NCBI RefSeq assembly: GCF_004010195.1 | Contig: NC_057758.1 | Span: forward strand, 3,436,750-3,500,749 | DNA from: Chiloscyllium plagiosum | Taxonomy: Eukaryota | Length of the DNA stretch: 64,000 nt | Reading direction: 5' to 3' | Part shown: one piece after another, positions 5,558 to 55,789 of the stretch | How the letters are laid out: every line of letters starts with the position of its first letter | How positions within the stretch are numbered: position 1 is the stretch's first letter | Translations under genes and position numbers: made by a program | Notes under the pieces: model-generated | What the model was told of the DNA's origin: nothing | Seen by the model: only the letters and a program-made list of their open reading frames with translations | Database searches by the model: none

Positions 5558-5666
5558 TCATGGCTAGAGAGTGTGCTGCGAAAGGGATCATTGTGAGCAG
5601 AGGCAGTGCTTATTGTACATTCTGCCCCTATGGGGATGGTGCAATCAGTTCTTGTTCAAGTGGTTA
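5558..5666 (+). pseudogene. Possible decayed beta-defensin-like mature-peptide exon
   Basis: With one 1-nt frameshift it reads MARECAAKG(D)HCEQRQCLLYILPLWGWCNQFLFKWL, i.e. C-x6-C-x4-C-x10-C with G two residues before C4; terminal CC absent; polypyrimidine tract upstream; AATAAA at 5786-5791. Confidence 0.4.
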
Positions 5667-6084
5667 ACACATGATTCATCAAACAGCCGACTGTCGCCTC
5701 GGTAGAATCAAGTGTTGATGCTCTAGAATGCCCAGCTTACCTGCTGATGCAACATTAGTGTGTATGTTATTCAGGTTCAGTGAAAAATAAATGGCCCAAC
5801 ACGAAATGGTACTTGTGCAGAATTCAGCGAGGGAAACGTCATTGAACATCAACGTGAGGATGGTGGAGATTGGTTTGATTTTATTTTGTTGCAATTGCAA
5901 CTTTACTGAAGACTGTGTGACATTAAAATCCTTTGCTATTTGTGAGCACAAGTTTGAGTGATCTCTGTGTCATGTTGCGTTTAGACCTACAGTACATACG
6001 CACTAATATGTCTGACTGAAGCTCTTTGCTGGAGTTCCACTTGTGATGGGAGATGGAAAATTAAACAGCTTAAAGACACATCTA

Positions 6085-6900
6085 CGGATACAGTAGATGA
6101 CATTGGTGGAAGTACAGGTAAATAGCTGTCGAATGCAGAAGGATCATTTGGGATCTTAGACGTGAGGGGGAGGTATCAGCGCAGCTTTGTCACCACTTGC
6201 AATGGCAGGCGAGGTGCCAGAAGGGATGGTTGTGTTGGTCAGGGATGTAGACTGGTCTCTCTGAAACACAGACTGGGGGGAGGCAGTTTGGAGGTGGCAG
6301 AAATGGCGGATGATGATGTGGTGCATCTGGAGGTTGGTTGAGTGGAAAGTGAGGACTTGCGGGAGTTTGCCCTTGTTGCGAAATGAGGGTTGAGTTTCAT
6401 GGGCAGGGGTCTGGTAAGTGTAGCAGATGCACGGGGTGGGGGGCGGCATTGTCAACTACATTGTAGCACAAGTTCCTGTCTTCGAAGAAGGAAGTCATTA
6501 GGGATGTTCTATGGTGGAACTAGTTCACCTGCGAGCAGATGCGCTGGAAGCAGAAGATTGAGAATAAGAATAGCCATTTATACCGGAGGCAGGGTGTGGG
6601 GCAGTGTAGTCCAGGTAGCTGCAGGAGTCAGTGTGCCTGTAGTGGATGTCTGTGTTGAGTCGGTCACAGGTAATGGAGTTGCAGAGATCCATGAAGGGTA
6701 TGTATGTGTCTGTGATGGTCCAGATTCACTCCATATGGTCTCCTTTACATTGGGGAGATAGAATGCCATGTTGCATATCGTTTCAGAGAACATTTCTGGG
6801 ACATCTGCAATAAGCAACCCCGCAGCCCCATGGCTGCACAATTTAACTCCTACTCCCACTCCGCCAAGGACATGCAGTTCCTGGGACTGAATCATCGTCA
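6085..6900. mobile_element. Penelope-like retroelement relic (RT C-terminus and GIY-YIG) with internal inversion
   Basis: Minus strand 6730-6085 gives IPFMDL..TDIHYRHTDSCSYLDYT, VLTFHSTN and FTCTSTNVIYCIR; plus strand from ~6735 gives GLLYIGE..RFREH. Confidence 0.8.
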
Positions 6901-6919
6901 AACACTAACCATCCAACGC

Positions 6920-8822
6920 CTTTATTTAACGACCAGGACTGTGACTTTACGTGCCCCAACTTAAAACAGTGGAAATGCCTGAGTACTTTCACTTCCTTTC
7001 CACCCTCTTGGGTTTCTTTTATCACCTGTGGTAAACAATTACCAGTGTTCTCTGCTCTTTATTTTGTAGTGTTGGATCTCCAGTTCTCTCGATTTTTATC
7101 CCTCACAGGATGAAATTCCTGCCACAAACTAATCTTTGCCTTATGCAGCAATGTATGCCTGCCATCACTGCTGCGGTTTTCACTTCCTGAGTTTCCTGTC
7201 TATCCACGTAAATTTGTATCAACTCAGGAAGTGAGTTTTTAAACTCCTCCAGCACAATATTCTCTTTTAGAGTCTAATCTAGTTTAAAGGCCCGCATCCA
7301 CCTATCAAAATGACGATGTTTAATTCTTTCAAACTCAACTTAATTCTGACCTGGTTCCTTCTGTATGTTTCAGAACCGCTGTCTGTACGCTTCTGGTACC
7401 AATTCATAAGCACTCAAAATAGCCTGTTTGACTTCATATTCTCTTAAGTCCTTATCTGACAGCACTACAAATACCTTACCAGCTGTGCCTATCTGTTTAG
7501 TCTGAACTAGAATTACCCACAAGTCTTCTGACTGCTCCATCTGCCTTGCTAACTTTTCAAATCAAATAAAGTAGTCTTCGTCATCTTTCTCATTGAAATG
7601 TGGCAGTGTTTTTTTAACATATTGTATATATCACCACTATCTGTCCTAATTTCCATCCTGTTAACTTGACTTTCCTAAGTCGCACTTCTGAGGTCTAATG
7701 CTTCTCTACATTTCTCCTTCTTTTCTCTTTTTCTCTCTCTATTTCTTCTCCCTCTTTTTGCTCAGCTAATAACATTCGCTCTCTTTCTTTTTTCCCCTCT
7801 CGCTATTTCATTTGCCTCTCTTTCTCTTTCTTCTCTCTCCATTTTTCTTTCTCTCTCCATTTCCTTATCTTCTAAATCCATTTGTTTGTTGCTCTGACAT
7901 TCTGAAGTGTTTGATTAATGCCCTTTCAATTTCAGCTTTAATTTTTTTCCTTGGTTAAACACATTTTTAACCTCATTCCTAATTCTAAAATTATGGTGTT
8001 TTCTTTTGTTTATAAACATTCTTGGCAAATTTGGGAATCATCTTCAAACACGAGAAATTCTTCAGCAATTTTAAGAGCGATTTCTCCCACAGTTAATTTA
8101 ATTAGCTACAAATAACCGAAATTAAAAGCAATACTTCAACTAAACATACAGAAAATCTCACCTCGCCTCATAATCTGCTGAAGAATGAGTGACAAGAGTA
8201 CAAGCAAAATTTCTGTATTTATAGAAAAAGGTAACAGTTTTATTCTCTCACTCCAAAAGAAAGCATTAAACAACAACTAATCGCAACACTAAGCTTCCTT
8301 TATCCTAAACTTTTGTCGTTTTTCTCCCACTTTATACGAATATGCCAAACTGTTAAAGTCCCTATTAACTTTAAAGCAAACCAATTTTGAAACTAATTTG
8401 TCGCCTTCGGGTGTCAACCTTCTTGTGTTTGTCGACTTCATATGGGTCTTTTCAGTCTTCTGCTGCAGAGACGTTTCATATGAGAAAGATACTTTTTACA
8501 GAGAAGGGTTCGCTCTTTGGCTAACTGTCCAAACTGTTTGCTCTGTATACCCCAAAACCAGGATCATCTCATTGTTAAGATGCTGTCAAAGCAATAACAT
8601 TTCAATTTGATATTTCTTAGTTCTTGGGGCATAACTAAAACCAATTTGTTGAATTCGAATTATGGTGAAAACAACTCAGGATCTGAGTTAAAGCTTGAAT
8701 TTTACATCTTCAAATTGTCCAGTACACTTTGTTCATACCGTCAGGCACATGACAGGTGTTTGCCAGCTTTCCAACTTTCACTCTCTCTTAAAGGTACAGG
8801 ACAGGCCTTCAACTTCATAACA
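6920..8822 (-). mobile_element. Gypsy (Gmr1-like) LTR retrotransposon fragment: probable 5' LTR and decayed gag
   Basis: Minus strand reads AILSAYELVPEAYRQRF..FDRWMRA, plus a degenerate zinc knuckle HFHCFKLGHVKSQSW; LTR-like segment ~8190-8822 starts TGTTATG and contains AATAAA. Confidence 0.75.
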
Positions 8823-8950
8823 CCACTGTGCATGCTTCTCACACGCTGAAGTGCCTGTACTGATCATCTGCGGCCTCTCTTCTGCCTCTAAGCGAAAGTG
8901 AAATGCACTGATCCTGAATTGATTTTGCTTCACATTTTTTAAACTCTACT

Positions 8951-9852: not shown

Positions 9853-10923
9853 CTGCAAGAAAAGAAAAGAAAAACTACAAATTAACCAGCAGTTGAGAAG
9901 TACACATTACGTTTGAAAGCAGACAGATGAGCAGAGGCCCAGAATAAAGAGGCACTTCTTTGAGATGACATGTGTGGCATCACTCAGTGTTGTGTACCTT
10001 TGATTTCCTTGCACAGATTTCCACATTTAAGTGATACTGGGCTCAACATTTTCACCCTCCTATTCTCCTGAAGAACAGCCATAATAGACTTAAAACAGGT
10101 TTCAGGTAAGAATGTTCCATATGACCAAAGGGGTCCAGAACCGGGAATGGGGTGCTAGGTGTGGTCACAGTACAAGTTTCAGCACAAGACTGAAATGAAA
10201 TGTGAACTCTGTTTCTCTCTCTCTCTCTTTCCACAGATGCTGCCAGACCTGCTGAGCTTCTCCAAGGTTTGTCCTGATATCCTCTGTGTCAATGGCCTGA
10301 GAGGAACACTCACAGAACATCAGTGAACATTTCAATGAAGGCAATGTGCCAACACTTTGCTGATAATTGAAAGAAGACCGACTGGATGAAATAAGACTGG
10401 AACAGAAATGTTGTTGGTCTGGAACAGGATCACAAATGGTGCAGCTAATTCCTTCAGCCCATAACATTATTCCTAAAGTTGGAATAGGTTTCAGATGTAC
10501 AAATGTGGTCTCAATAGAGGCCAAAGCTGAAAAGGCATGAGCCATGTCTGGCTGAAGAAAAAAGGTTATGAATTCTACATATCGATTCTTCAACTCTGTT
10601 AACGTCTGTATAAGATGGGGGTTTTCACCAAACTTGGACTCTCTGTTCTATGAGCTACAACTGAATGTTGGCAGAATGGCCGATGCTCTATCTCAGCTAT
10701 TACTGTGGGAATGACTCAGTTCTGTCGCTCGCTTGATATTCGTGCTATTTGTGAAAGAAGCCCTGGATTGCACCTCTTCATCGAGCTTGCATCCCATCTT
10801 TCGAATTTGTTGAATCCTGCTCTTGATTGTCTCATTTAATAATGATCTAGTCACCTGCTTTAAGCTCGATGTTAGAATGAGCGAAGATCACGCTGCCATG
10901 TCCCATTTGGAGTTTTTATATTT

Positions 10924-13900
10924 AGAACATAGAACAATACAGCGCAGAACAGGCCCTTCAGCTCTCAATGTTGTGCCGACCTGTGAACTATTCTCAGCTT
11001 AGCCCCCTACACTATTCCAAAATCATCCACGTGGTTATCAAAGGATTGTTTAAATCTCCCTAATGTGACTAAGTTAAATACATTAGCAGGTAGGGAGTTC
11101 CACGCCAGTACTACTTTCTGATTAAAGAAACGGCCTCTGAAATCTGTCTTAAATCTATCACTCCTCAATTTGTAATTATGGCCACTCGCACAAGCTGCCG
11201 TCATCATCCTCGGAAAAAAAAACTTTCTCTGTATACCCTATCTAATCCTCTGATCATCTTGTATGTCTCTATCAAATCCCCTCTTAGCCTTGTTCTTTCC
11301 AATCAGAACAGACGTAAGTCTCTCAGACTTTCCACATAAGACCTTCCCTCCAGACCAGGCAACATCCTGGTATATCTCCTCTGAACCTTTTCCAATGCTT
11401 CCACATCCTTCCTGAAATATGGGTATCAGCACTGTGCACAATATTCAAAGTGTGGCCGCACCAGCGTTTTGTAAACTTGCAACATGATATTGCGGCTCCA
11501 GAACTCAGTCCCTCATCAAATGAAACCTAGCACACCGTATGCCTTCTTAACAGCACTATCCATCTGGATGGCAACTTTCAGGAATCTATGTACATGGGCG
11601 ACAAGATCCCTCTGAACATCCACACGACCAAGAATCTTTCCATTGGCCCAGTACTCTGCCTTCCTGTTTTTCGTCCAAAAGTGCATCACCTCACATTTAG
11701 CTGCATTGAACTCCATTTGCCACCTCTCAGCCCAATCCTGCAGTTTATCTAAGTCCCCCTTCCAAACTGTGCACTCCTCTGCAAATTTACTAATCCATCC
11801 ACCTATGTCTGCATCTAAGTCATTTATAAAAATGACAAACATCAGTGGTCCCAAAACAGATCCTTGTGGCACACCACTAGTAACCGGACTCCAGGCTGAA
11901 TATTTTCCATCAACCACAACTCGCTGCCTTCTTTGAGAAAGCCAGTTTCTAAACCAAACTGCTAAATCACCCTCAATTCCATGCCTCTGCATTTTCTCTA
12001 ACAGCCTGCCTTGTGGAACCTTATCAAAGGCGTTACTGAAGCCCATGTATACCACGTGAACTGCCCTACCCTCATCTACATGCTCGGTCACCTTCTCAAA
12101 AAACTCAACGAGGTTTGTGAGACACGATCTGCCCTTGAGGAAACCATGTTGACTATCTGAAATTAAATTGTTTCTTGCTAGATGATTATAAATCTTATCT
12201 CTTACAATCCTTTCCAAAACCTTTCCTCCAAATTAATTAAGGCTCACTCGTCTATAAGACCTGGGTTATCTCTACTGCCCTTCTTGAACAAGGGCACAAT
12301 ATTTGCAATCCTCCAGTCATAGAGTCATAGAGATCTACAGCATTGAAACAGACCCTTTGGTCCAACCTGCCCACGCCGACCAGATATCCCAACCCAATCT
12401 AGTCCCACCTGCCAGCACTGGCCCATATCCCTCCAAACCCTTCCTATTCATATACCCATCCAAATGCCTCACAAATGTTGCAATTGTACCACCACATCCT
12501 CTGACTGCTCATTCCGTAGACGTACCACCCTCTGCGTGAAAAAGTTGCCCCTTAGGTCTCTTTTATATCTTTCCCCTCTCACCCTAAACCTATACCCTCG
12601 AGTTCTGGACTCCCCGATCCCAGGGAAAAAACTTTGTCTATTTATCCTATCCATGCCCCTCACAATTTTGTAAACCTCTATAATGTCCCTCTGGTACTAA
12701 ATCTGCAGAAATTGACGACTCAAATATCAAAGTCAAAGGTTCTGCTACCAGAATCCTCGAGCTTCCCAGAGAATCCTCGGATAAATGCCATCTGACTCAG
12801 GGGATGTGTCTACTTTCACTCCTTCAAGAATTGATGACACCTGTTCGTAACTAACCTCGATCCTTTCTAGTCTAATATCTCATAGCTCAATATTCTCTGC
12901 AATGTTTTCCTTTTCCTGAGTGAAAACTGATGAGAAATGTTCATTTAGTATCTCTCCGATCTTCACAGGGTCCCCACTAAACTTCGCACTTCTGTCTTTG
13001 ACTGGCCTTATTTCTACCCTCGTCATCCATTTATTCCTTACAGACCTATAGAAAGCTTTAGGGTTCTCCTTTGTTCAATTTGCTAAAGACTGCTCGTGTC
13101 CTCTCTTTGCTTTTCTTAACACTCTCTTTAAATCCTTCCTAGCTGATCTATAACTTTCCATCGCCTCATCTGAACCATCTTGCCTCATCAACACATAAGC
13201 CTCCTTCTCCTTCTTAACAAGAGATGCAATTTCTGTAGTAAACCACGGTTCCTTGATCTTATCACTTCCTCCCTGCCTGACAGGTACATACCTATCACGC
13301 AATATTTGTTCCACAAATCTCTACAGCTCCACATTTTCATTGTCTGCATCCCCTGCATTTTGCTATCCCATTCTATGCATCCTAATTCTTGCATAATCGC
13401 ATTATAATTGCCCTTGCCCCATCGATAACTCTTGACCTGTGCCATGTACCTATCCCTTTCCATTGCTAAAATAAACAAAATGAATTATGGTCACTACAAC
13501 GTGCTCACCTACAACTAAATCAAACACCTGGCCTGGTTCATTACCAAGAACAAGATCCATTGTGGCCTCCCCTCTTGTCGGCCCTTCGACATACTGTGTC
13601 AGGAAACCCTCCTGCACACATTGGACAAAAACTGATCCATCCGACTTACGAGAGTTATAGCATTTCCAGTCAATGCTGGGGAAGTTAAAGTCCCCATAAT
13701 GACCACCTTGTTTCTCCTACTCCTGCCCAGAATAATTTTGCTAATCCTCTCTTCCACCTCCCTGGAACTCTACGGAGGCATATAAAAAGCTCCAAGCAGT
13801 GTGACCTCTCCACTCCTGTTTCTAACCTCAGCCCACACTACCTCAGTGGACGAGTCCTCATCAAAAGTTCTCTCAGCCACCGTTTTACTATCCTTGACTA

Positions 13901-14040
13901 ACAAGGCCATGTCTCCCCCTCTTTTACCGCCTTGCCTGTTCTTAATGAAAGATTTAAACCCTGGATCCTGCAACATCCATTCCTCACCCTGCTCTATCCA
14001 TGTCTCCGAAATAGCCACAACATCGAAGTCCCACGTACTC
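10924..14040 (-). mobile_element. Near-complete degraded CR1 LINE ORF2 (APE endonuclease and RT)
   Basis: AISETW endonuclease motif at ~14018; RT motifs QHGFLKGRSCLTNL, AFDKVP and GVPQGSVLGP; tail at 10924. Confidence 0.9.
12318..12683 (-). mobile_element. LINE 3' end nested inside the 10924-14040 LINE
   Basis: ATAGAGTCATAGAG tail; the host LINE sequence (ATCCTCCAGTC...CTCTGGTACTAAA) resumes after it. Confidence 0.8.
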
Positions 14041-14292
14041 TATGTCACCTCCGATTATTAGAATCTCCAAAGGATACATGTGCAACTTTGAAATTGAACA
14101 CTTTTCTTTCCAATATCTCCCCGTCCCTTCTCTTTCTGTGTTTCTCACCTCCCTGCCTCCATTTGCCCAGATGAATAACTACGATAATTAAAACAACAGT
14201 GATGAACTGCTGGGCGTCTGAACCGAAAGCTGAAACGGCTGGAGAAACTCGCCATGTCTGACGGAATCTGGGAAGAGGGGAGCTGAGTTAAT

Positions 14293-14628
14293 GGCGCAGT
14301 GGCTCTATGGTTAGCAGTGTCTCCTCACACCACCAGGGACTCGGGTTTGATTCCTCCCTCATGCAACTGTCTGTGTGCAGTTTGCACATTCTCCCCGTGT
14401 CTGCCTGGGTTTCACCTGAGTGCTCCGGTTTCATCGCACAGTCGAAAGATGCGCAGAATAGGTGAACTGGCCATCCTAAATTAACCACTGTTTTCAGGGG
14501 TGTGTAGGTTAGGTGCATTAGTCTGGGGTAAATGCAGAATAGTGGGGAATAGGTCTGGGTGAGTTACTGTTCAGAGTGTCAGTCTGGACTAGTGGGCCAA
14601 ACGACCTGTTTCCACACTGTAGGGATTG
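14293..14628 (+). mobile_element. HE1-like tRNA-derived V-SINE
   Basis: A/B-box-like head (TGGCTCTATGGTTAG; GGTTTGATTCC), V-domain GTTTGCACATTCTCCCCGTGTCTGC and LINE-derived tail TTTCCACACTGTAGGGATT. Confidence 0.85.
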
Positions 14629-15049
14629 TTTTTTCATGTTTCAAGTCCTGCCTCCCTTCTTCAGAAATTAGTACTGTTATATCCACTCCCGTGTCGTTTA
14701 GAGGATTCAGCTGTCACCGTTTAATCTCTGCTGTTTTTACAAAGAACCTGTGGCGTTCTCTGGGAGAGTCATGCCTCGATTGGGAAGGATGCTGCCTCTA
14801 AGTGGACTGTGAAGAAGAGAAGACATCAGGGAATCTGCACAGCAGGTTCGAAAAATGATATATGTTTGGGGGGCCGGGGGGGGGATCAGATTGACATTTT
14901 GGACACACTGGCTGCATTCACCGATTTAGTAATTCACTGTACCCACATTTGACTGTCTACAGAGTTTAGGCCAAGGCATTTTCACACTGTTCTTATTTAG
15001 CTCTGCAAATGTAATGGCTGTAAAAGAATAACGAAGCACAATGAACAAA

Positions 15050-15975
15050 ATACGAAAAGATAAACTGCACAGGAACAGGCGCTTTGACCGTCCAAGCCCG
15101 CGCTGATCCAGAGTCCCTATCTAACCCTGTCACCTATTTTCTAATTATCTGTATCCCTTTGCTCCATGCCCATTCATGTATCTGTCGAGATACATCTTAA
15201 ATGACGTTATCATGCCTGCTTCTACCATATCCACTGGCAAAGTGTTCGAGGCACCCACCACATTCTGTGTAAAGCATTTTCCATAATATCTCCCTTTAAC
15301 CTTTCCCAACTCACATTGACCTCGTGATCCTTCGTCCCGAGTTCCCCAGTCTGTGAAAAAAAACTTCATGCTATTCACCACGTGTGTATCTCTCAAAAGT
15401 TTGTTTACAGAAATCAATTCCCCCTCAACTTTTGTCTTTCTAAGGAAAGTATTTCCAACATACTTTATCTCTCTTCACAGCCCTTCCCTCGTCAATCAAC
15501 TTTATCAATTCCACAAGTAATTCTATTAAGTTTGTTAGACATTACTTTCCCTCCATTAAACCATGCTGCCGGTTACTAATAAGCCCATTTTCTTGCAAAT
15601 CTAAATAGTTCCTTTGCCTCAGTATGTTCTCCAGCAGCTTCACCGCCGCTGACGTCAGGCTCATTGGTCTATAATTACCTGGACTATCTCTACTAACCTT
15701 CTTAAAAATAGCGACACCAGTCCTTTGGGACTTCAGCCGCGTTCAAGGATGCTGCAGAGATATCTCTGAAGATCCCAGCTCTTGCCACTCTCCCTTCCCT
15801 CATTCTCTTGGGCAAGATCCGATCAGGACCTTGGACTTGTTCGTTTTTATGCGTTTCAGACAACCAACCATTTCCTCCCTATTTATGCCGACTTTACAGA
15901 GTGTAGTCAAACATCCGACCCTAATCTCAACATCCATCATTTCCCTCTCTTTGATGAATACTGAGGCAAAGTACT
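15050..15975 (-). mobile_element. Old CR1 LINE fragments
   Basis: FTQNVVGASNTLP and NYRP-type remnants. Confidence 0.7.
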
Positions 15976-16749
15976 GTAGAGTTCAACCCTGTCAAGTGTG
16001 AGGTTGTCCATTTTGGAAGGACAAATAAGAATGCGGAATACAGGGTTAACGGTAGGGTCCTTAGTAAAGTGGAGGAGCAGAGGGATCTTGGGGTCTATTT
16101 TCATAGCTCTTTGAAAGTTGCCACTCAGGTGGATAGAGCTTGTAAGAAGGCCTATGGTGTATTAGCGTTCATTAGCAGAGGGATTGAATTCAAGAGTCGT
16201 GAAGTGATGTTGCAGCTGTACAGGACCTTGGTTAGGCCACATTTGGAGTACTGTGTGCAGTTCTTGTCGCCTCATTTTAGGAATGATGTGGAAGCTTTGG
16301 AGAGAGTGCAGAGGAGATTTACCAGGATGTTGCCTGGAATGGAGAATAGGTCGTATGAGGATAGGCTGAGAGTGCTAGGCCTTTTCTCATTGGAACAGCG
16401 AAGGATGAGGGGTGACTTGATAGAGGTTTATAAGATTATCAGGGGAATAGATAGAGTAGACAGTCAGAGACTTTTTCCCCGGGTACAACAGAGTGTTACA
16501 AGGGGACATAAATTTAAGGTGAAGGGTGGAAGGTTTGGGGGGATGTCAGGGGTAGTTTCTTTACCCAGAGAGTGGTGGGGGCATGGAATGCACTGCCTGT
16601 GGGAGTGGCAGAGTCAGAATCATTGGTGAGCTTTAAGCGGCAATTGGATAGGTACATGGATAGGTGCTTAAGCTAGGACAAATGTTCGGCGCAACCTCGT
16701 TGGCCGAAGGGCCTGTTCTGTGCTGTATTGTTCTATGTTCTATGTTCTA
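15976..16749 (+). mobile_element. CR1 LINE 3' portion (young)
   Basis: ORF 16069-16629 ([31 protein letters not shown]) followed by a TTCTATG tail. Confidence 0.9.
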
Positions 16750-19700
16750 TAACAATCTCACCCATTTTCTCTGGCTCCATGCATAACTTCCCTCCTTTTT
16801 CTTTGAGTTGCACAACCCTTTCTCGAGTTAGCCTCTTTCCCCTTTTATGCAAGAAAAAGGCTTTGAGATTGTCCTTAATCCTGTTTGCACAAAACATTTC
16901 ATAGTGTCTTTTAAACTTCTTAATTCTTCGTTTCAGATTGGTCCAACTTTCCCGATATTCACCCAAAGCTTCATCTGCTCTCAGTCACCTAGACTTTGAC
17001 TGTACATACTTTTTCCCCTCAGCTAATCTTACAATTTCACTTGTCATCCATAGTTCCTTAATCTTTCCATGTGTATCCGTCATTTTCGCAGGCACCTGTG
17101 TGTCCTGCACTCTCATCAAACTCTCTTGAAAAGCCTCCCACATATCAAATGTGGATTTACACTCTAAAAGCTCCTCCCAGTCCACACACCCAAATCCTGC
17201 TGAATTTGGCTGGAGTTCGCCTTCCCCCAGTTTAGCACTTTTCCTTTTGGACTACTCTCGTCTTTGACCACGAGGATTCTAAAAGTAACAGAAGTGTGAT
17301 CACTATTCCCAAAATAATCCCCAGCTGAATCTTGAACTACCTGGCCAGGCTTGCTCCTCAACATAATTTCCAGTCTGACCCCTTTCCAAGTGGGACTATT
17401 TACATATTGCTTTACAAAACTCTCTTGGATGCTTCCGACAAATTTTGTTCCATCAAGAACTCTAACACAAGTCATTCCCAGTCCATGTTGGGAAAATTAA
17501 AATCTCCCATTTTCACCACTATGTTGCTCCTATATATTTCCATAATCGGTTTATATATTTATACCTCTGTCTCACGCTCGCGTTGGGAGGCCCGTGGTAC
17601 AGCCCCAGCATTTGTTAACCACTGCCCATATTGCCTCACTGCCCGAGTCCTCCATGTGCCCTCCTTCAAAGAAAAGAACAAAGAAAATTTACAGACCTGG
17701 AACAGGTCATTCAGGCCCTCCAAGCCTGAGCCGATCCAAATGTACTGTCGAAACCTGTCTGTCAATTCCTAAGAATCTGTATCCCTCTATTCCCCATCTA
17801 CTCATGCTTTTGTCCAGATGCATCTCAAATGAATCTGCCTTGCCTGCCTCTACCACCTCTGCTGGCAATGCGTTCTAAATGCCCACCACCCTCTGTGTGA
17901 AGTACTTGCTGCGTGTATCCTCCTTAAGCTTTCCACCTCTCACCTTGAAAGCGTGACCTCTCGTTATTGAATCCTTCACCCTGGGAAAAAAGCTTGTCCC
18001 TATCCACCTTGTCTATAAACTTCATGAGTTTGTAAAGCTCAATCAGGTACCCCACAATCTCCTTTTTTCTAATGAAAATAAACCTAACCTACTCAACCTT
18101 TCTTCATAGCTCGCATCTTCCATACCAGGCAACATCCCCGTAAATGTTTTCTGCATCCTCTCCAAAGCGTCCACATCCTTTTGGTAGCTGAAATTTTGTT
18201 GCTGGAAAAGCGCAGCATCCAAGGAACAGGAGAATCGACGTTTCGGGCATAAGCCCTTCTTCAGGAACCTTTTGGTAATGTGGCGACCAGAACTGTACAC
18301 AGTATTCTAAATGCGGCTGAACCAATGACTTGTACAAATTTAATCTGCCTTGCCAGCTCTTATGCTCAATACCCCGTCCAATGCAGGCAAGCATACTATA
18401 GGCCTTCTTGACCACTCTATCAACCTGTGCAGCAACCTTCAGGGTTGGACCTGCACTCCCACATCTCTCTGCCCATCAACGTTTCCCAAGAGTCTTCCAT
18501 TCATTGCATAATTCGCTCGAGAATTAGTCTTGCCTAAATTCATCACCTCACATTGTCTGGATTGAAAACCATCTGCCACTTTTCCGCCCAAGTCTCCAGT
18601 CTATCTATATCCTCCTGTATTCTCTGACAGTCCGTTATGCTTTCTGCTACTCCAGCAATCTTTGTGTTATTTGCAAACTTGCTGATCATACCAACAGTGC
18701 CCTCTTTCAGATCATTTATGTATATTACAAACAACAATGGCCCCAACATTGATCCCTGTGGAACACCACTGGTCACCTTTCTCCATTTCGAGAAACTCCC
18801 TTCAACAACTAATGTCTCTGTCTCCTGTTGCTCAACCAGTTATTTACCCACCTAGCGAGAACACCCTGCACACCATGTGATTTCACTTTCTCCATTAGTC
18901 TACTATCGTGAACGTTATCAAACGCCTTACTAAAGTTCATGTATATGACATCCGCAGCCCTTCCTTCATCTATCAACTTGGTCACTTCCTCGAAGATCTC
19001 TCTAAAGTTGGTAAGGCATGATCTCCCCCAAAAGAAACATGATTCCTATCACTGATAATCCCATTGTTTTCTATATATAAACGGATCCGATCCCTCAGTA
19101 CCTTCTCCAGCAACTTTCCCACCACTGACATCAGGCTCACTGGTCCATAGTTTGCAGGAATATCTCTTCTACCCTTCTTGTACAGGGGGACAACATGTGC
19201 AACCCTCCAGTCGTCCGGCACCTCACCTGGATTTAAGGATGCCAGAAAAATATCTGTCAGGGCCCCAACCATTTCCTCTCTCGCCTCCCTCAGCAAACTA
19301 GGATTGATCCCATCTGGTCCTGGGGATTTGTCCACCTTAATAACCTCTAGCCTACCCAACACGTCTTCCCTACTTATGACAACGCGATCCCAACTAATCA
19401 AACTTCTATCTCTAATCTCAACATTCATCATGTTCCTCTCCTCAGTGAACACGGATGCAAAGTAATCATTCAGAATCTCACCTATTCTCTCAGGTTCGAC
19501 ACACAGCCTTCCTTCGTTATCCATTAGTGGACCAATCCTTTCTCTAGTTAGCCGGTTGCATCTTATATAAGAATAAAATGCTATTGGATTCTCCTTAATT
19601 CTGCTCGCTAAAGCTATTTCATGATCCCTTTTAGACCGCTTGATTCCTCATTTAAGATTTGTCCTACTCTTCCGATATTCTTCCAGGGCCCGTTCTGTTC

Positions 19701-21420: not shown

Positions 21421-21529
21421 TGTGGCCAGCTATATCAGTGCACTGACCTACCCAGAGCCCACTGGCTGCCGAGGAAAGTCCTTTTTGAGGGAAATTTATC
21501 TTCCCAGCAGACCCCTGCTCCTCGCTGTC

Positions 21530-42865: not shown

Positions 42866-44349
42866 CTCATATCCAATCCCTCCACAGATCTGAACATTCA
42901 GGATGGATCAAAAACACTCAGAGACAGAGGGAGAGACCAATTGGCAGACACCGTCCTCAATATTTATTGCCAGTATGGCAGAGGGCAGGATCATAAGGAT
43001 GTACGAGGCTTCAGTATCAAAAGAAGCTGTGTGGAAGGGAAGGATCGGGAGTCTGTGACTGCCATCTCCCCATCCCCATTATATCCATTCCACCGCGTGC
43101 TCACACATGGAAGACGGAGAGCGTCTGGACCATCAGCAGATCTAAAATCACCAACTCCTTCGCCTGGCAACAATGGGTGCCCTGGTAGCACTTGGCTGTG
43201 ATCTTCAGCTCGTCCCCTCGACAGGGCTGCTCTCAGCACAGGCCTCTCACCACCTCGCATTTGCCTCCAGTCTCAGCGAACATAACCAGCGGAGTCAGCT
43301 CACTCGCTCACCACATCGGGATTACCGACGTTGATCGATGGGCATGTCTCACCTGAACAGCCAGGAGGGGGCGTGAATAGGGTCGGAGGGATCACGCATT
43401 TCCAACATTAGTCTCCGCAAACAAACACCCATGCAAAACTTTTGACTCTGTTACTTATTTTCCATTTTCTGACAGAGTGTGGATGTGAGGCATTGGGAAT
43501 CTACCACCACGCCCAGAAAATAAACCTCTAATCCTGCCCCAGAAACCTGTGTCTCCCAATTGCTCTGTTCTCCAGCTTCAACGTAGATATCGAATTCAAT
43601 GATTGCTGTCTATTCACACGGGCTGTGCCTGACCGGCAGGATCTGGCAACATATGTGGGTGCCTACTGGATTGTCACAGAGACTTGTGCTGAGGCACAAG
43701 AGAAAGAGTTTCTTTTTATTATTTTAAAGGCATCAAGGGGTGTGGCGTGCAATTGGGAAATTGATGATAAGTGAGAGGATCAGCTGTCAGCAAACTGAGG
43801 GACTGATCGGCTGAATCCTGCTCTTAGGTAATGTATTTCTGGATCTCACCTTGTGTGTGTGTTTGTGCTTCCCTCTGGCTGGCTGTCCATCTGTTTGCTT
43901 CACTGGTCCTCAAAGGCTCAGTGCCAAGCAAACAGGAGGCTCTGCCAGAGAACGGACTAACAGGGAATGGAGGGTGCCTGGGGCTAGTAGGGTTGTGTGA
44001 AATCAGCTTGGGCCAGCAGTCTCCTTGCAAACTGAGAACCAGCCTCTCAACAAGCCCCCGCACGCCTTATGTGGTGGCGATTCACCTTGGTAGATGAAAT
44101 GCCTCCCTGGCAAAAGGTCGGCCACGGACAGAGACAGGAGTTCAAGGAGGAGGAAGAATACTCCTTTCATCTTCAGGTGAGTTCCTCCGAACCTGGAGAA
44201 AGCAGAGCGAATTTGAAACCGTTTACATTCCCAGTTGCTCTGGAATTGTTTCCAACAGCCCCACGTCAAGGGGCAAGTGAGAGTTAACCCTCCAACCTGT
44301 TATCTGGAGACAGCAGAAAAACATCGGACTGTAAATATTGGCAAAGACT

Positions 44350-46760: not shown

Positions 46761-46769
46761 ACAGCACAA

Positions 46770-49700
46770 TCACTCCAATATTGTGGAGATCCCACAGCAC
46801 TGACACTCTGAGAGTACCTACACCCTCAGCTCTCACCATCTGACAATGCCTATTCCCTCAGCACTGAACCCAAACAGTGCCCATTGCCTCAGCACTGAAC
46901 TTCCAACAGTCCGTCACTCCCTCAGATCTGAACGTCCGATCATGCGGCGCTCCCTCAGCACTGAACATCCAACAGCCCACTCTGACATTGCCCACTCCCT
47001 CAGCACTCAACGTCTAACAGTATGGCACTTCCTTAACACTCCCGCCAACAATGCGGAACTCCCTCAGCACTGAGTGTCTGACAAAAGGGCACACCCTCAG
47101 TACTGAGCCTCCAACAGTAAGGAGCCCTATCTGAACTGAGCCTCTGACAGTGCAGAGTTCCCTCATATCTGAAACTCTGACAGTGCGGCAAATCCTCAGC
47201 TCTGATACTCTGACAGTGTGATACTCCCTCAGCGCTGACAATCTGTCAGTGTGGCACGCCCCCAGCGCTGACCCTTCAACAGTGTGTCATTACCTCAGCA
47301 CAGACGCTCCAACAGTGCGGCACTCCCTACGACAATGTGGAGCTCCATCAGCACTGACACTCCAACACAGCCGAGCGCCCTCAGCCTTACCTTGCATCAG
47401 TGCAGCGCCCCCTCAGCACTGAATCACCGACAGACGAGCGTTTCCTCAGAACTGACCCTCCAACAGTGCAGCGGTCTATCAGCAGTGACCCTCGAAAGTG
47501 TGCTTTCCCTCAGCACTGACCCTCGACAATGCATGCTCCCTAAGCGCTGACCCACAAACAATGCAGCATTCCGTCAGCACTGAGACTCCGAATGCATGGC
47601 ACTGGCTCAGCAATGACCCTCCAGCAGTGCGGATGCCCCGATCGCTAAAGCTCTGGCAGTGCCCACTCCCTTAATACTGACCCTCCAACAGTGTGGCGCT
47701 CACTCTACATGGACCCTTCGACCATGCACAGCTCCATCAGCACTGACCCTCTGATAGCGCGGAGCTCCCCTAGCACTGACCCTCCGATAGTGGAAACTCC
47801 CTCCCACTGACACTCCAATAATGCAACACGCCCTCAGCACTGATCATCTGACCGTGTGTGCCCCGTCAGCACTGGGCCTCGGACAATGTGGAGTTCCCTC
47901 AGCATTGTCCCACCAACGTGGGTCACTTTCTCAGCACTGACCTTCTGGCAGTGCTGTCCTGCCTCAGCGTGATCCCTCATCCTGTGCAATGCTCCCTCAG
48001 CGCTGACCGTCCAACTGTGCCCATTATGTCAGCACAGACCCTCCATCCGTGTGACATTTCTTCAGCACTCATCTTGCGACAGTGAGGCACTCCCTCAGCA
48101 GTGACCCCCGAACGTGTGGTGCTCCCTCACCGCTGACTCTACAAGAGTGCCTACTGATGCAGTTCTGATCCTCCGACCGTGTGGCAATTCAACAGTTCTG
48201 CCCCTGCAACAGTTTGGCCTTCCACAGCGCTGGCACTCTGAAAGTGGAGATACCCTCAGCACATACGCCCTAACAGTGGCCACTCCCACAACGCTCCAGA
48301 AGTCCCACGTTGCCGCAGCACTGACACTGCAACTGTGTGGAGGTGTTCGACAGTGTGGCACTCCCACAGCACTGACCCTACAACAGTGGGACACTCCCTC
48401 CAACAGAGCAGAGTAGCCTGAGCACTGAGGCAATGTCAGATCCACTCTCGCCCTTCACTGACCCAATGACAATGGTGCACATCCTCAGGACTGATCGTCC
48501 AACAGTGCGACACTCCCTCAGCGCTGGCCCTCTGATACAACCGAGCTCCCACAGCCTGAAACTGCGTCAGTACAGCACTCCGTCAGTGCTGAGCCTCGGA
48601 CTGTTTACGTTTCCTCATTACTGACCCACTAACAGTGCAGCGCTCTATCAGCACTCACCTTCCAAACTGCATGCTCCCAATGCACTGACGCTCGACAGTG
48701 TGTTATTCCTCAGCACTGACCCTCTAAGAGTTCCACAATTCCTCAACACTGACAGTGCGGAGCTCCATTAATGCTGACCCTTCGACTGTGTTTTACTTCA
48801 CCAGCACTGACACACCAACGGTGCTGTGCTTCCTCAGCAGTGATCCTCTGACAGCGCGGAGCTCCCTCAGCACTGACCCATCAAATGTGTTGCGCTCCCC
48901 AGCACTGAACCGCCAACAGCGCGGCATTCCCTCAGCACTTACCCACCAACGGTGCTGTGCTTCCTCAGCACTGATCCTCTGACAGCGAGACGCTCTCGCA
49001 GCACTGAACCACCAACAGAGCAGCGCTCTCTCAGCATTGACCTTCTAACAATGCCCACTCCCACATCACTGATCCAGCGACAATGTGGAGCACACTCTGG
49101 TCTGACCATCTGACAATCCAGAGCTCCAACAGCACTACCCCTCTAGCAGTGCGGCACCCATCAGCAATGACGCTCTGAGAGTGCCCACTCCTTCAGCACT
49201 GACCCTCTGACATTGCGGCATTCTCTCAATACTGACTTGTCTTTCCCCAGCATCGACCCTCCAATAGTACTGTTCCCGTTAGCACTGAATCCCTGAGGAT
49301 GCAGAGCTCCTTCGGCACTAAACGCCCAATTTCTCTTCGACAATGTGGAACTCCCTCATCACTGACCCTTTGATAGAAAGACACTTCCTCAACACTGACT
49401 ATCCAAAACTGGGGCACTCCACCAACACTGACTTTCGAGATTTTGGCATTCCCTCAGCACTGACCGTCTGAATATGCCCACTTCGTCAGCGCTAAACCTC
49501 CTATAGAGCCCACACTCACAACTCTGAATGCACAAGTGTGCCCACTCCCACGACACTGTCCATACAACAGTGCTGCACTTCCTCAGCACTGACAGTCCGT
49601 CAGTGTGGAACTCGTTCAACACTGACCCACAAACAGTTTGTGGCTTCCTCAGCACTGACCCTATGACAGGTGCCACTGTCCTTCAACACTGGCATTCGGA

Positions 49701-51895
49701 ACATCAAGAGCTCGCTCAGCCCAGAGACTTCACCAGTGTGACACGACCACAGCACTAAGCCTCCAACACTGTGGCACTCCATCCGCTCTGACCTTGCAAC
49801 AGTGCCACGCTCACTCAGACCTGACACTCCGACAGTGTGGAGCTCTGTCAGCAATCACCCTCCAATAGTACGGAGATCCCTCAACGCTGAAACTCCGACA
49901 ATGTGCGGCTCACCACCGAGTCTTCAACGATGTGGCACTCTCTCAGCATTGACCATCGAACATTGCAGCAAGCCTTCTGAATTGATCTTCCAATAGTGCG
50001 GCACTTCCTCAGCACTTACCCTCTGACAGTACGGCACTCTCTCTGCACTGACCCACCATTAGTGCTGCGCTCCCTCAGCACTGGCCTTTCGAAAGTGTAG
50101 CACGCCATCAGGTGGTCACTCAGCACCAACCCTCCAAATGAGGAAACTCCTTCAGTACTCACACTCCGGCAATACTAGCTCCGTCAAGCTGACTCTGCTA
50201 TAGTTTGGAACTCCCTCCGTGGTGATCATCCAACAGTGTGGCACTCCCTCAACACTTACCCTCCAACAGAGTGTCATTCCCTCAGGCTGACCATCTAACA
50301 GGGCCACACTCCCTCAGGACTGACCCATCAACAGGAGCGAACTCCCTCAGCACTGACCTTTTGACATTATCAGCATGCCCTCACCACAGACCCCCCAACA
50401 GGATAGCATCGCCTTCGTGCTGTCCCCCTGAGAGTGCTGCATTCCCTCAGCATGAACCCTGTGAAAGTCCCTACTCCCTGAATACTGACTCTCTGACAGT
50501 GCGGAGAACCCTCCACACTGATTATCAATCAGTATGGTACTCACATGTCACTGACTCTCTGAAATTCCACACTCCCACAGCACTGAACATGTAACAGAGC
50601 GGCGCTAATTTAGCACTGTGCCTCCGACTGTGGGGTATTCGCTTCAGCGCTGACCGTCCGACAATGCGGCTGCACTGACGTTTCGACAGTGTGGGACTCC
50701 CTCTGCTCTGACCCTCCAACAGTGCGACACTCTAACATTATCAGTTCCCTCAGCACTGACACTCTGACAGTGCGAACTCCCTCTACACTGACCCTTTGAC
50801 TGTTCCTGCTCTTTCAGCACTTACTCTCCGACAGTATGGAATCCCCTCTGCACTGATCCTCCAACAAATAAGCGCCCCACAAGACTGACCCTCCGAAAGT
50901 GCCCGCTCCCGCAGCACCGACGTTCCACCAGTGCATGTGCACTCAGTGCTCTCGCTCCGATAGTGCACGGTCCCCTACTCCAACAATGCAGTGCTCCTTT
51001 CGAACTGGCCCTCGACAGTGCGTCACTCCCTCAGCACTGACCTTCTGACAGTGCAACACACCCTTACTAGTGACCTTACAATGGTGCGGCACATCCTCAG
51101 TGCTGACTTTCCGACAATGCGGCAGTCCATCAGTACAGAACCTCTGACAAAGCCCTTTCTTTCGGCACTGAATCTCCGACAGTGCAGCACCCAGTAAAAA
51201 CTGACTTTCCACAGTGGGGAGCTCCCTCAGCGCTGACACCCCGACTGTGCCCGCTCCACCAGCACTGGCCATCCAACAGTACCCACTGCCTAATCGCTGA
51301 CCCTCCAACAGCGCGACACTCCCGCAGCACTGACCCTCCAATAGTGGTCGCTCCTTCAGCAGTGTCGCTCCATCAATGCCCACTTCCTCAGCACTGATTT
51401 TCAAATAGTACGGCACTCTCTCAATGCTGAACCTCCCACAGTGCAGTGATCCCACAGCACTAACCCTCCAACAATATACTGTATCTGAGCACTGACCCAC
51501 CAACAACACCATCTGCCTCACAACTGAACTTCTAACTGAGCCCATATCCTCAGCACTGATCCTTTGATAGTGCTGTAACACACAGCACTGACCATGTGAC
51601 AGAGCCTGCTTCCCCAGCACTGAGCATCTAAGGGAGACTGCTTCCTCAACACAGTGTGTCTCACAGAGCCGACTCTGTCAACACTGACCCTCTGACAAAG
51701 TCCCCTTCCTCAGCAATGACCATCCAACAGTGCGTTGTTCCATCAGCACTGACCTTCTGACAGTGCTGTGGTCCCTCAGCACTGACACTCCGTCAGAGGC
51801 CGCTCCCCCAACACTGTGCAGCTGACAGTCCTGACTCCCCATCGATTGACTGCCCAACAGTGTGCAGCAGCCTAAACACTGACCTCTGAGAGGCA
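46770..51895. repeat. Diverged ~33-bp satellite array, ~5.1 kb (roughly 150 units)
   Basis: Consensus approximately CCCTCAGCACTGACCCTCCGACAGTGCGGCACT; period 33 (e.g. 47741/47774). Confidence 0.92.
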
Positions 51896-52434: not shown

Positions 52435-52589
52435 CTGGGAAGCAGAAAACGCGTTTCATTATTATCAACAGTCAGTGTATACGTAGGGTTCAACCAAGAG
52501 ATTGAGAGAGCTATACTGTGCAGTGTAGTTTCACGGAGGGATAGGGAAAGAAGAGCTATCCAAAGTGCTCAAAGTGTGTTCTAACCGAT

Positions 52590-53060
52590 ACTGAGAACAC
52601 AACTGTGCACTGTGCTAATGTGTGGTGCAATTGAGTGTTTTCAAGCAGAATTGTGCATAATGATTTAGTGTGGTGTAACTGAGAAATATAGATAGCAGAA
52701 TTGTGAACTGTTCTTTACATTTACTGCAGGTGAGTGACATTGTGAGCAGAATTCTGCACTGCGCATTTTATGTGGTACAACTGAGAAATGTTGAGAGCAA
52801 AAATTGCACTGTGCTTTATATTTGGTATAATTGAGAAATATTGCGAGCAGATATGTGCACTGTGCATTATATGGGCTGTATGTGAGGAACATTGCGAGCA
52901 TAATTGTGTATGCTGTTTTCTGTATGGTGTAACTGAGAGATATCGGGAGCAGAATTGTGCACACTTCCTTATATGTGGTGCAATGGATAATTATTTAGAG
53001 AAGAATTGTGCACTGTGTTTTAAGTACGGTAAAAGTGAGGGACACCGAGAACAGAATTAG
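52590..53060. repeat. ~51-bp tandem repeat, 9-10 copies, inside the defensin intron
   Basis: GCAGAATTGTG-like core recurs at 52645, 52695, 52746, 52797, 52847, 52897 and 52949. Confidence 0.88.
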
Positions 53061-54094
53061 GCATCTTGATTTAAGGATATCAGCACTGACACATAAAGTG
53101 GAGATGTACCGTTATGCCAATTGGAAACCAACTTTTCAATCGGCTGAATAAGAAGATTTAGTGTGGAGACGGGGTGACTTTTACCTGAGATGTAATAATC
53201 CATCTGCTATTGCGGCTTCTAAAAGGATGAAATGGTTTATCTAAACTTTGAAATTGCTTCTTCCCAACAGTTCTTGTGCCGTGAAAGAAAACTATTTGCC
53301 TTTTTTGAAATGTCCATGTTCTTCCTGTTAATTGTATACCTGGAACCTTTTCTGAAAATGTCCATGGATAAGCCCCAATGATAAGAGAAACAAAACAATT
53401 TGGCATCTCTGGCCTAACAAGCTAGGTTTCAGTGTGGAACCTTACTTTTCCTGTATGACCACAAGCTGGGATCATTTCAATTTGGAGATCAGAGCGATGC
53501 ACATTTCTCCGAGTGAGGTCAAACGATTGGGAGCAAAATTCTTGGAGAACGGACTAGCTCACATTGAAGCAGGGATGTCAAGAAATCTCCAATGGTGCCT
53601 CACGGGACCATGTGAAACAAACTCTAGCACAGGGCATCAGGCATTGCCTCAACATTATATTGTTTCAAGAAATGGCTTAAAGGCAGAGAGATAGAGAGCG
53701 AGAAATAGACAGCGAGAGACAGAGAGAGAGGAAGAGATAGGCAGAGAGAGGCAGGCAGATAGAGAAGCAGAGACAGAGATAGTGATAGAGGGAAACAAAG
53801 ATTATAAAGAGAAGTTGAGAGAGAGAGGGATAGAGATAGAAAGAAAGAGAGAGAGAAAATGCAGATACGCAGAGACAGAGATAAGGATAGTGATAGAGGG
53901 AAAGCGAGATCATAAAGAGTAGCAGAGACAGAGATAGAGATAGAGAGAAATGGAGAGACAAACGGAGAGACTGAGAGCGACGGAGGCAAAAAAGACAGAG
54001 AAAGAGAGAGGTACAGAAAGAACAAAATGTGTGTGAGAGAGTCAGTGGTGAGGGGAACAGCTTAAAGGAGTTTTAAGGATCATGTTTTCATTGT

Positions 54095-54860
54095 AGTAGC
54101 CCCCTCTCAACGTAAATGCATAGCCTCTCGTATTAGACATTTCAACTCTGGGAAAAAAAAAGATTCTGACCGTTAACTCTATCTATGCATCTAATGATTT
54201 TATAGACTTCGACCAAGTCTGCCCTCAGCCTCCGCCGCTCCAGGGGAAACATTTGATAATGATGTAGAGGTGCCAGTGTTGGACTGGGATAGATAAAGTT
54301 AAAAAGTGGACAACACCAGGTAATAGTCCAAAAGGTTTATTTAGAAGGCTTGCTTTCGAAGCGCTGCTCCTTCATCAGTTCGATGTTGGGTCAGGATCAT
54401 AGGACACATTATGTATCGTAAATGATCTAAGTACTTCCAAATAAAACTGTTGGAGTATAACCCTGTGTTTGTATGATGTTTAACTGAGTTTTCCTGGCCT
54501 CTTCTTTATAGTACATGTCCTCTCATCCAGGCAACATCCGGGTAATCCTCTTCCGCATTCTCTCCATTGCCTTCACATCTTTCAAATAATTGTGGTGATC
54601 CTCATTGAACGCAACATTCAAGCGTTCAAGCAAACTCTTACAAAGCTACAACATGATATCCTGCCTCTGGTACTCATTTACCAGACTAATCAAGGCGATC
54701 CTGCCATATTCATTCTTTCCGACCTAATCTACTGGCATAGCTACTTTCAGGGAGCTATTGACTTGAGTCTCAAGTTCCCACCGTACATCAATGCTGTTTC
54801 AGGTCCCTGTAACACGTCTACTTTACATTTCATCTCCGCAAAAATGCAGCAACTCACGCT
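54095..54860 (-). mobile_element. Degraded LINE 3' fragment interrupted by a Penelope-type relic (~54265-54487) with inverted ends
   Basis: Arms ~54297-54348 and ~54434-54486 are imperfect reverse complements; minus strand reads CTGATGA-A-GGAGC-AGC-GCTTC-GAAAGC at ~54378-54352. Confidence 0.7.
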
Positions 54861-55635
54861 TACCGTCATTCAGTGTGTCGAAGGGTCTGAGATACGGAGA
54901 TCTGAAATCAGGAAATTAATCAGAGGTGTTGCAGAGAGTCCTGAGGGTGGAATAGAAGATGATCTGCTCAGCCATCACCTCCTTCAACAGCGGCACACAC
55001 TGGATGGTCCAAACAGCCTATTTGTATCCCTACACATTATGACCTTAGAAATGTAATGTTCACAGCAGCCTCTCTGGGTGTGTGGGGATGGGAATGGGGG
55101 AGGGAGTGAAGGAGGTCTGATCGGAGTTATAATTCCAATGTCACAGAATCACCCGCAACGCAGAAGGAGGCCGTTCGGCCCGGCTTGTCCATGCCATTTC
55201 GGCAAGTGGGCAGTTCACCCAGCGCCATTCCGCTGCCTCTTCGTCATTTCTTTTCAAATAATCTCTTCCCGGAGGCTTCTGTTCGACCTCCCCAGCTCCC
55301 CATCGGGCAGGACGCTCGTTCCCCAAACCCCTCAGTGCTGGAAGTTTGCCTCCCTCACTCTGTATTTCTGCCTCCTTTACCAATTCCCTGAGCCCTCTAG
55401 TTGTTCAAAATCCTGTTTAAGAAACCGAACACACGGTGACCCAGGAAAGAAGAGCAAGGACGTTTTTGATTGTGCTGCACTTTTTCACCTTAACAGAACC
55501 AACATGAGACGATGCTGAAACAAGCCAAAGCAGCCCTGACCCAAATAAAAGGCAGTACAGGCTGAAAGACGGAATGGCATCCTCGGTTTCTCCCGTTTCC
55601 CCACACCCAGAGTGTTCCCTGCGATTTGCACTGAC

Positions 55636-55732
55636 CTCCCAAATAAATGCCGCTTCGCAGTTCCCTGTCAGCAGTGTTGGGCTGCGCCATCACCAAGGCA
55701 CAAAGAAGCAATATTGGAGATGTCCACATCAT
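55636..55732 (-). CDS. Beta-defensin-like peptide, exon 1 (signal peptide and propiece)
   Basis: MMWTSPILLLCALVMAQPNTADRELRSGIYLG, then donor GAG|GTCAGT at 55635; phase 1 matches the Cys exon; TATA 50 nt upstream of the ATG. Confidence 0.8.
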
Positions 55733-55754
55733 CAGGCTTGCTGCTCCGAGCTAC

Positions 55755-55789
55755 AATGAGCAGGCTGGCACACTGCTGTTGTTTATATG
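55755..55789 (-). promoter_or_regulatory. Core promoter of the defensin-like gene
   Basis: TATAAA 55787-55782; Inr-like TCATT with the A at 55757, 30 nt from the first T of the TATA box. Confidence 0.7.

Follow-up and report, generated by a model that had tools for sequence, protein, structure and literature searches.

Three putative beta-defensin loci beside a GPR139-like receptor gene in the shark Chiloscyllium plagiosum

Introduction

Does a shark genome hold beta-defensin genes of the general vertebrate kind, and is a receptor gene that lies among them a partner or a bystander? The question is raised by a stretch of 64,000 nucleotides (nt) of Chiloscyllium plagiosum (NCBI RefSeq assembly GCF_004010195.1, contig NC_057758.1, forward-strand positions 3,436,750 to 3,500,749), here called the window and numbered from its first letter. 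An earlier annotation made from the letters alone, the original prediction, described a putative defensin cluster under birth-and-death evolution, interleaved with a GPR139-like G-protein-coupled receptor (GPCR). Judged by sequence, the window contains three loci of beta-defensin type, one intact-looking (A) and two broken (B and C); the cluster thus stands, whereas the interleaving is not supported, with all three loci on one side of the receptor. On the reading that we consider probable, A, B and C are three gene copies with a six-cysteine beta-defensin fold, shaped by duplication and decay, and the GPR139-like receptor is an unrelated neighbor.

Part of this is already known: an automatic UniRef label, "Beta-defensin", is attached to one shark protein, and the kind of family is familiar. 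In a 2019 review, the section on antimicrobial peptides of fish (PMC6795676 section 14) mentions no defensin from a cartilaginous fish, and the accessible portions of PMC10707392 and PMC13337447 name no shark defensin. No paper on shark defensins was found among titles and abstract starts, a coverage that excludes subscription journals and supplements. In protein databases, a single relative was found, GCC16467.1 of C. punctatum.

Results

Three loci with defensin-type exons

Vertebrate beta-defensins follow the cysteine pattern C-x6-C-x3/4-C-x9/10-C-x5/6-CC. Defensin-type exons are defined here by C-x6-C-x4-C-x10-C-x5-CC, a spacing that fits the vertebrate pattern and of which A retains six of six cysteines, B six of six and C five of six. 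Across six frames of the whole window, the sole strict six-cysteine match lies at 52420-52328 (-), in A. A relaxed six-frame scan yields three matches: A, B exon 2 (43259-43167, -, with spacing identical to that of A and TGA in frame), and a GT-repeat artefact, which was rejected. Coordinates of all features are collected in Table 1.

The two exons of A, separated by an intron of 3,201 nt, join as an open 71-codon frame, with AATAAA 140 nt past the stop. The apparently intact minus-strand copy of the original prediction is this gene, which combines an open frame, a phase-1 GT/AG splice layout and all six cysteines. Its hydrophobicity and R-x-x-R motif suggest a leader composed of a signal peptide and a pro-cleavage site. 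The hydrophobic, phase-1 first exons of A and B account for 3 of 30 rows of a crude window-wide scan, the other rows being mostly simple repeats. In the proposed pathway, A would be spliced in phase 1 and enter the secretory pathway through its leader, the short pro-piece would be trimmed at or near R-x-x-R, and three disulfides would form. The released peptide of ~45 residues would, by analogy with its family, serve epithelial or mucosal host defense.

The weak candidate noted earlier near 44075 proves to be the donor of B exon 1; B exon 2, 821 nt downstream, had been missed. The two B exons probably belong together, given their strand, phase and 821-nt distance. The acceptor of exon 2 is weak (8 of 15 pyrimidines). 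C had been described as a clear plus-strand pseudogene spanning 29146-32540, of which exon 2, with its TGA and lost sixth cysteine, holds, whereas the exon 1 placed at 29146 scores as background; a recognizable exon 1 of C was not found. A selenocysteine reading of the TGA codons in B and C was dropped, since the B relative has Arg at this position and C also lacks the sixth cysteine.

Table 1. Features of the defensin loci, the receptor gene and the doubtful candidates, in window coordinates
Feature	Position	Strand	Remarks
A TATAAA	55782-55787	-	50 nt 5′ of ATG; putative promoter function
A exon 1	55732-55636	-	97 nt, phase 1, GT donor; hydrophobic signal-peptide-like stretch and short pro-piece with R-x-x-R
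CT-rich tract in A intron	53662-54060	-	
51-nt array in 3′ part of A intron	52669-53017	-	6.9 copies; decayed homologue in C intron
A exon 2	52434-52316	-	C-x6-C-x4-C-x10-C-x5-CC, open; pyrimidine-rich AG acceptor; AATAAA at 52177
B exon 1	44170-44086	-	85 nt, phase-1 GT donor, signal-peptide-like
B exon 2	43264-43101	-	six Cys kept; premature TGA 43235-43233; AATAAA at 42968
C intron remnant	31011-32350	+	CT tract 31011-31119, then 31376-32350 homologous to 3′ part of A intron
C exon 2	32422-32540	+	TGA 32463-32465; Cys6 codon TTC; good acceptor; AATAAA at 32797
Receptor exon 1	28072-27892	-	181 nt, phase 1; start codon placed by homologues, other in-frame ATGs exist
Receptor exon 2	9852-8951	-	7tm_1, open
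Exon 1 of C in the original prediction	29146-29279	+	plausible distance, no sequence support
Distant candidate of the original prediction	5558-5666	+	not above background
Possible exon-1 relic (33785-33885 in the original prediction)	33774-33856	+	weak likeness to 3′ half of A exon 1

Relatedness of the copies

The exon-2 peptides of A, B and C score 55, 55 and 50 in pairs, values reached by none of 2000 shuffles in each case, and they are each other's top non-self matches among 4260 six-frame tiles. Pairwise identity in exon 2 is 38-43 of 93 at the DNA level, 8-11 of 31 in protein and 6-14 of 31 at third positions; this low identity marks the copies as old paralogues rather than a fresh tandem array. 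A and C lie in opposite orientations, and their exon DNA is ~46% identical. Self-BLAST of the window (E<1e-4) returns only LINE-like (long interspersed nuclear element) and tandem repeats, with no defensin-defensin match.

A profile of the three exon-2 peptides, searched against 1.84 billion protein representatives, returned two proteins. The better match is GCC16467.1 (chiPu_0020313, UniRef100_A0A401REA7), the carrier of the UniRef "Beta-defensin" label; the second, P0003, a 1033-residue repeat protein, was rejected as a chance match of cysteine repeats. A word-indexed protein search with A alone gave nothing and, with a 4-row alignment of A and three relatives, gave only GCC16467.1, itself part of the query.

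Family identity and predicted fold

PF00711 is the sole Pfam family match for B (12.0 bits) and C (11.9 bits), at E 0.2 and below the cut-off of 21. The PF00711 and PF13841 models appear weighted toward tetrapods and would hence be a weak test for a shark peptide. In the ESM Atlas, the nearest clusters of A are beta-defensins (0.85, 170 shared features), and the C. punctatum relative reaches 0.79, with template modeling (TM) scores of 0.62-0.73 to beta-defensin clusters; both are leads only. A profile search of the PDB is uninformative: its matches, at E 0.4-1.4, are three host-cell-factor peptides and beta-defensin 106.

The AlphaFold2 (AF2) model of A exon 2 improves from a predicted local distance difference test (pLDDT) score of 61 with the single sequence to 88 with the 4-row alignment. 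Foldseek with the A model has the human peptides beta-defensin 1 and 2 (hBD-1, hBD-2) in its top rows, with TM scores of 0.57-0.65 and E 0.6-1.3. In an exhaustive VIA-align comparison, Z 2 is attained by 25 of 48,161 chains, led by hBD-2 (Z 4.0, root-mean-square deviation 2.4 over 36); the rows are mostly titled defensin or defensin-like, and among them platypus defensin-like peptides, crotamine, gallin and anemone peptides score Z 2.2-3.4. A is accordingly modeled as a beta-defensin, with a predicted short helix and three-stranded sheet, and the disulfide pairing 1-5, 2-4, 3-6 would be compatible with both the cysteine spacing and the predicted fold.

No single family or fold score is significant, but cysteine spacing, gene layout, structure and feature searches agree, and the beta-defensin identity of A, B and C, as originally proposed, is supported. 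That the six-cysteine exons are chance patterns, or members of another defensin-fold family of venom or ovodefensin-like type, is exceedingly improbable: the Pfam and fold scores are sub-threshold and the platypus, crotamine, gallin and anemone rows lie within Z 1-2 of the top, yet three independent exons have identical spacing, acceptors, polyadenylation signals and matching leader exons, and beta-defensins head the rows of every method.

Comparison with known defensin systems

Among the closest known systems are the tetrapod beta-defensins (PF00711, PF13841; hBD-1 2nlp/2nlb, hBD-2 1fd3, mallard AvBD3 7lzl). Common to both are two coding exons with the leader in exon 1 and six cysteines in exon 2 (as described in the available part of PMC6362941), a predicted helix with three strands at TM ~0.6-0.65, and clustered genes with birth-and-death turnover (excerpts of PMC4255768). 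The shark copies differ in a C3-C4 loop of 10 residues, a C4-C5 loop of 5 residues, 22-36% identity, the low charge of A and the cartilaginous-fish host; the loops of 10 and 5 residues account for scores below the Pfam cut-off.

Teleost beta-defensins (sea bass, cod, grouper, flounder) likewise have six cysteines, a precursor of 60-77 residues and a charge of +1 to +5 (PMC3978493, in part). Their genes, as far as the accessible text of PMC8231796 and PMC3978493 describes them, have three exons, short introns and cysteines split over two exons, whereas the shark copies carry six cysteines in one exon behind an intron of 0.8-3.2 kb, a mammal-like and not a teleost-like layout. If A is expressed, the six-cysteine-in-one-exon layout would date to the common ancestor of jawed vertebrates, the split-exon layout of teleosts would be derived, and shark innate immunity would gain a defined peptide.

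The net charge of A exon 2 is only +2, and for A, chemoattraction or immune modulation may therefore be as important as the killing of membranes. One alternative keeps the same genes and their birth-and-death turnover but assigns the live product a reproductive (epididymal or sperm-coat) or other non-antimicrobial secretory role; we regard it as unlikely, though it carries some weight. It draws on this low net charge and on internal fertilization in sharks. Roles in reproduction and pigmentation are described for some beta-defensins (PMC4255768, in part), and one fish beta-defensin is expressed mainly in pituitary and testis (PMC3004800, in part). RNA reads point to no tissue, however, fish defensins with a charge of +1 to +5 rank as antimicrobial in the available part of PMC3978493, and the B relative in C. 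punctatum has a core charge of +7. Host defense is the role retained here.

Turnover of the copies

B and GCC16467.1 are 85% identical, differing at 11 of 71 positions, and have the same cysteine spacing and the same 21-residue tail. The C. punctatum protein has an open frame with Arg where B has its stop, and on the assumption of orthology B is therefore, to judge from these sequences, a recently killed gene. A DNA contig of run X3, from a study that possibly supplied the assembly itself, covers the B stop without difference. The pair shows a gene dying within the time span of a single genus; the locus addresses a gap in vertebrate defensin history, and gene loss in it is datable.

The core charge is +7 in GCC16467.1 versus +2 in B. 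Along 43104-43316 (-), the differences between B and the C. punctatum entry (P0002) mostly lower the charge in B (Q>E twice, N>D, R>T, K>E, Arg lost), which reflects either a charge shift before the death of B or a gain in C. punctatum. The first 19 residues of P0002/GCC16467.1 match the B intron, where the C. plagiosum genome has a stop; the public model therefore likely starts within the intron, and it probably lacks the real leader exon. An acceptor-like stretch lies 5′ of the B ATG, at 44180-44230 (-), and B may have a 5′ non-coding exon.

A and C also share intron sequence. The 3′ 716 nt of the A intron match 31776-32234 in C (~470 nt shared) at E 1.5e-7 in an nhmmer search, and two neighboring pieces of the C intron also match the A intron at E<0.001, with a best E of 4.5 in the reversed-window control. 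The match runs mostly through the 51-nt array; 234 nt outside the array as called by the Tandem Repeats Finder give E 0.0007, in a stretch that is also array-like. The original prediction was to be refuted if paralogous segments did not align after masking. Since A and C align, this refutation does not hold, although most of their shared intron signal lies in the array, which masking would remove. The 5′ half of the A intron has no match upstream of C. A weak intron match pointed to a possible relic near 4.5-5.0 kb (-), which was rejected for want of a cysteine exon there.

The introns of A and C each have a CT tract that precedes exon 2 by ~1.2-1.3 kb. The broader claim that several copies share a CT-rich tract holds for these two introns and not for that of B, where no tract was found (best 65 of 100). 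Tracts also occur downstream of the doubtful candidates discussed below, but 30 of 212 arbitrary 3-kb segments contain one as well.

With one copy intact, one recently killed and represented by an open relative in C. punctatum, one older relic and intron homology between A and C, the sequences support birth-and-death turnover of the defensin copies, as first suggested. Copies would arise by local duplication, with an old split between A and C and with inversion as part of the turnover, and would die by nonsense changes, B recently and C long ago.

Expression and possible further paralogues

No indexed RNA run contains A exon 2 together with its 3′ untranslated region. Two single-cell RNA runs with the same species label, X5 and X6, were sampled at 2% and 6%. 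In X5, 345 reads mapped, 344 of them partly and nearly all on repeats; the bins that hold B and A exon 2 have zero depth, and the one with A exon 1 has 0.15. None mapped in X6.

In two DNA runs, the contig over A exon 1 has depths of 99 and 169, versus ~4-16 on nearby unique sequence. Among its differences listed, L, L, A and M are replaced by I, V, V and L, hydrophobic for hydrophobic in each case. A 905-nt contig of run X1 over the A intron (52532-53484) is ~93% alike; it shows 60 differences, lacks one of the 51-nt units and represents either a close paralogue or a divergent haplotype. Together, these contigs suggest close paralogues of A elsewhere.

The whole local cluster might instead be dead or dying, with A silent though so far free of lesions. 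Two of the three copies are broken, the A intron contains LINE-like fragments, and no RNA read falls on A exon 2. We nevertheless judge this improbable: A keeps TATAAA, ATG, a hydrophobic leader, in-phase GT/AG, six cysteines, stop and AATAAA, all retained though only 8-11 of 31 residues are common with its paralogues, and the RNA runs are thinly sampled, their tissue not identified. We continue to treat A as an intact-looking gene copy beside two broken ones.

The GPR139-like receptor

Joined across the intron of 18,039 nt that separates them, the two receptor exons keep phase and encode an open class A receptor of ~360 residues, whose N-terminus is carried by a separate exon. Among 3,159 candidates, 1,716 homologues reach E<=1e-20, and all 120 listed are from sharks; the receptor is 56-64% identical to shark proteins labeled "probable GPR139". 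A search of the PDB with the single sequence gives no match at 1e-5. With a 16-sequence profile, the nearest solved structure is GPR139 (PDB 7vug, 9m42) at E 2.8e-10; the other solved matches are the platelet-activating factor (PAF) and neuromedin U receptors, and none of the five matches is CCR6 or a melanocortin receptor. The class A 7tm_1 domain is common to the window receptor and GPR139, but even the profile reaches only E 2.8e-10 to true GPR139, and the receptor is best placed as a member of a distant paralogue family and not as a GPR139 orthologue. No paper on a shark GPR139-like family was found among titles and abstract starts. In the database receptor models P0004, P0005 and P0006, part of the seven-transmembrane region is repeated; tandem copies in Heptranchias were likely fused in these predictions.

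All confirmed defensin loci lie on the 5′ side of the receptor, at 4.4 kb (C), 15 kb (B) and 24 kb (A). The claim of copies on both sides of the GPCR rests wholly on the candidate at 5558, which scores as background, and is therefore unsupported. Within the window, neither a second receptor copy nor a relic of one was found, and self-BLAST reveals no duplicated block with both receptor and defensin; the proposed co-duplication with GPR139-like receptors is thus not supported in this window, which has a single receptor with no second copy, relic or shared block. The suggested ligand-receptor link, for which proximity is the sole argument, fares no better: the defensin motif occurs in none of the 120 receptor homologues listed, and the nearest solved relative is GPR139, not CCR6 or a melanocortin receptor.

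It is accordingly very unlikely that defensins and GPR139-like receptors duplicated together as ligand-receptor cassettes. In favor of such cassettes, C and the receptor stand head to head at a distance of 4.35 kb, and mammalian beta-defensins act on CCR2 and CCR6 (PMC6362941, in part) and on melanocortin receptors (PMC9599618, in part). Set against this are the ratio of three defensins to a single receptor, their position on one flank only, the lack of a shared block or second receptor relic, and the receptor's own relationships described above. An equally long shot is a wider scheme in which sharks would have a large, fast-turning repertoire of low-charge peptides with a beta-defensin fold, acting as secreted signals read by expanded GPR139-like receptors; such a matched ligand-receptor repertoire, immune or pheromone-like, would have its genes on one chromosome, and the window would show one head-to-head pair.

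The receptor is likely a mere neighbor of the defensins and not their partner. It would stem from a separately expanded shark family, and both families would accumulate in repeat-rich, duplication-prone DNA, hence their proximity. In the human 8p23.1 beta-defensin copy-number-variable region, defensins also sit beside a large GPCR family, with flanking olfactory-receptor duplications (PMC4255768, in part), a precedent that makes a defensin-GPCR neighborhood ordinary. The shark locus differs in that the neighbor is an intact receptor of a GPR139-like family expanded in sharks; it also reveals no duplication unit common to the two.

Several observations count against the overall reading of a defensin family that turns over beside an unrelated receptor. 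Pfam gives no match for A and none for GCC16467.1, a PDB sequence search with A gives no match, the single-sequence AF2 model of A is poor (pLDDT 61) with no usable fold match, and all fold scores (Foldseek best E 0.63; Z <=4.0) fall short of formal significance. The charge of A is low for a membrane-lytic peptide, and its function is drawn from the family only. C exon 2 begins only 4.35 kb from the receptor start. No RNA read falls on A exon 2 or B in X5 and X6, which at 2-6% sampling speaks for neither expression nor silence, and contig depth is not equivalent to copy number.

Doubtful candidates

The candidate exon 1 of C at 29146 lies 3,142 nt from C exon 2, a distance close to the 3,201 nt of the A intron. 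It was rejected: its score is reached by 124 of 968 background tiles, by 459 of 972 when compared end to end, and by 95-321 of 1000 shuffles.

The distant candidate at 5558-5666 was likewise rejected, with 21 of 968 tiles reaching its score as exon 1 and 161 of 964 as exon 2. A frameshift-tolerant profile gives it 21.8, a value reached by 4-14 loci per shuffled 82.8 kb; the candidate can be read only with a frameshift, and its final CC is missing. In its favor, C-x4-C-x8-G-x-C, a pattern chosen post hoc, is confined to this site and A. Its scores are those of background, and in our judgement it is rather unlikely, though with a chance that is not negligible, to be a real defensin copy.

The proposed orphan exon-1 relic, here 33774-33856, retains a weak likeness to A exon 1, ranking 1-11 of ~390 loci in four scorings, with 3-31 of 1000 shuffles reaching it. 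Its score is about the chance level of the best few loci per window, a GT donor is lacking, and the sequence downstream yielded no exon 2; the likeness stands, and it is kept as a possible relic. A short stretch 5′ of it, at 33745-33775 (+), resembles that upstream of B and is not significant by nhmmer.

Sequence setting of the window

The window consists of vertebrate DNA rich in repeats, among them many LINE fragments that resemble reverse transcriptase and are, by their motifs, putatively CR1-like. Window-recurrent repeats cover 80% of the receptor intron (9853-27891) versus 39% of its flanks. The same intron contains a perfect 188-nt inverted repeat (22266-22453 and 23111-23298), which is either a recent rearrangement or an assembly artefact. 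Directly 5′ of receptor exon 1, in the likely promoter, two copies of a 141-nt unit with 80% matches occupy 28217-28484. N gaps lie at 42321-42631 and 57521-57743, and the CA-rich low-complexity end of the window (55800-64000) produces false cysteine-rich frames. Between A and B, a degenerate 33-nt tandem array extends over 5 kb (46770-51860); its very high depth in DNA runs marks it as a dispersed minisatellite.

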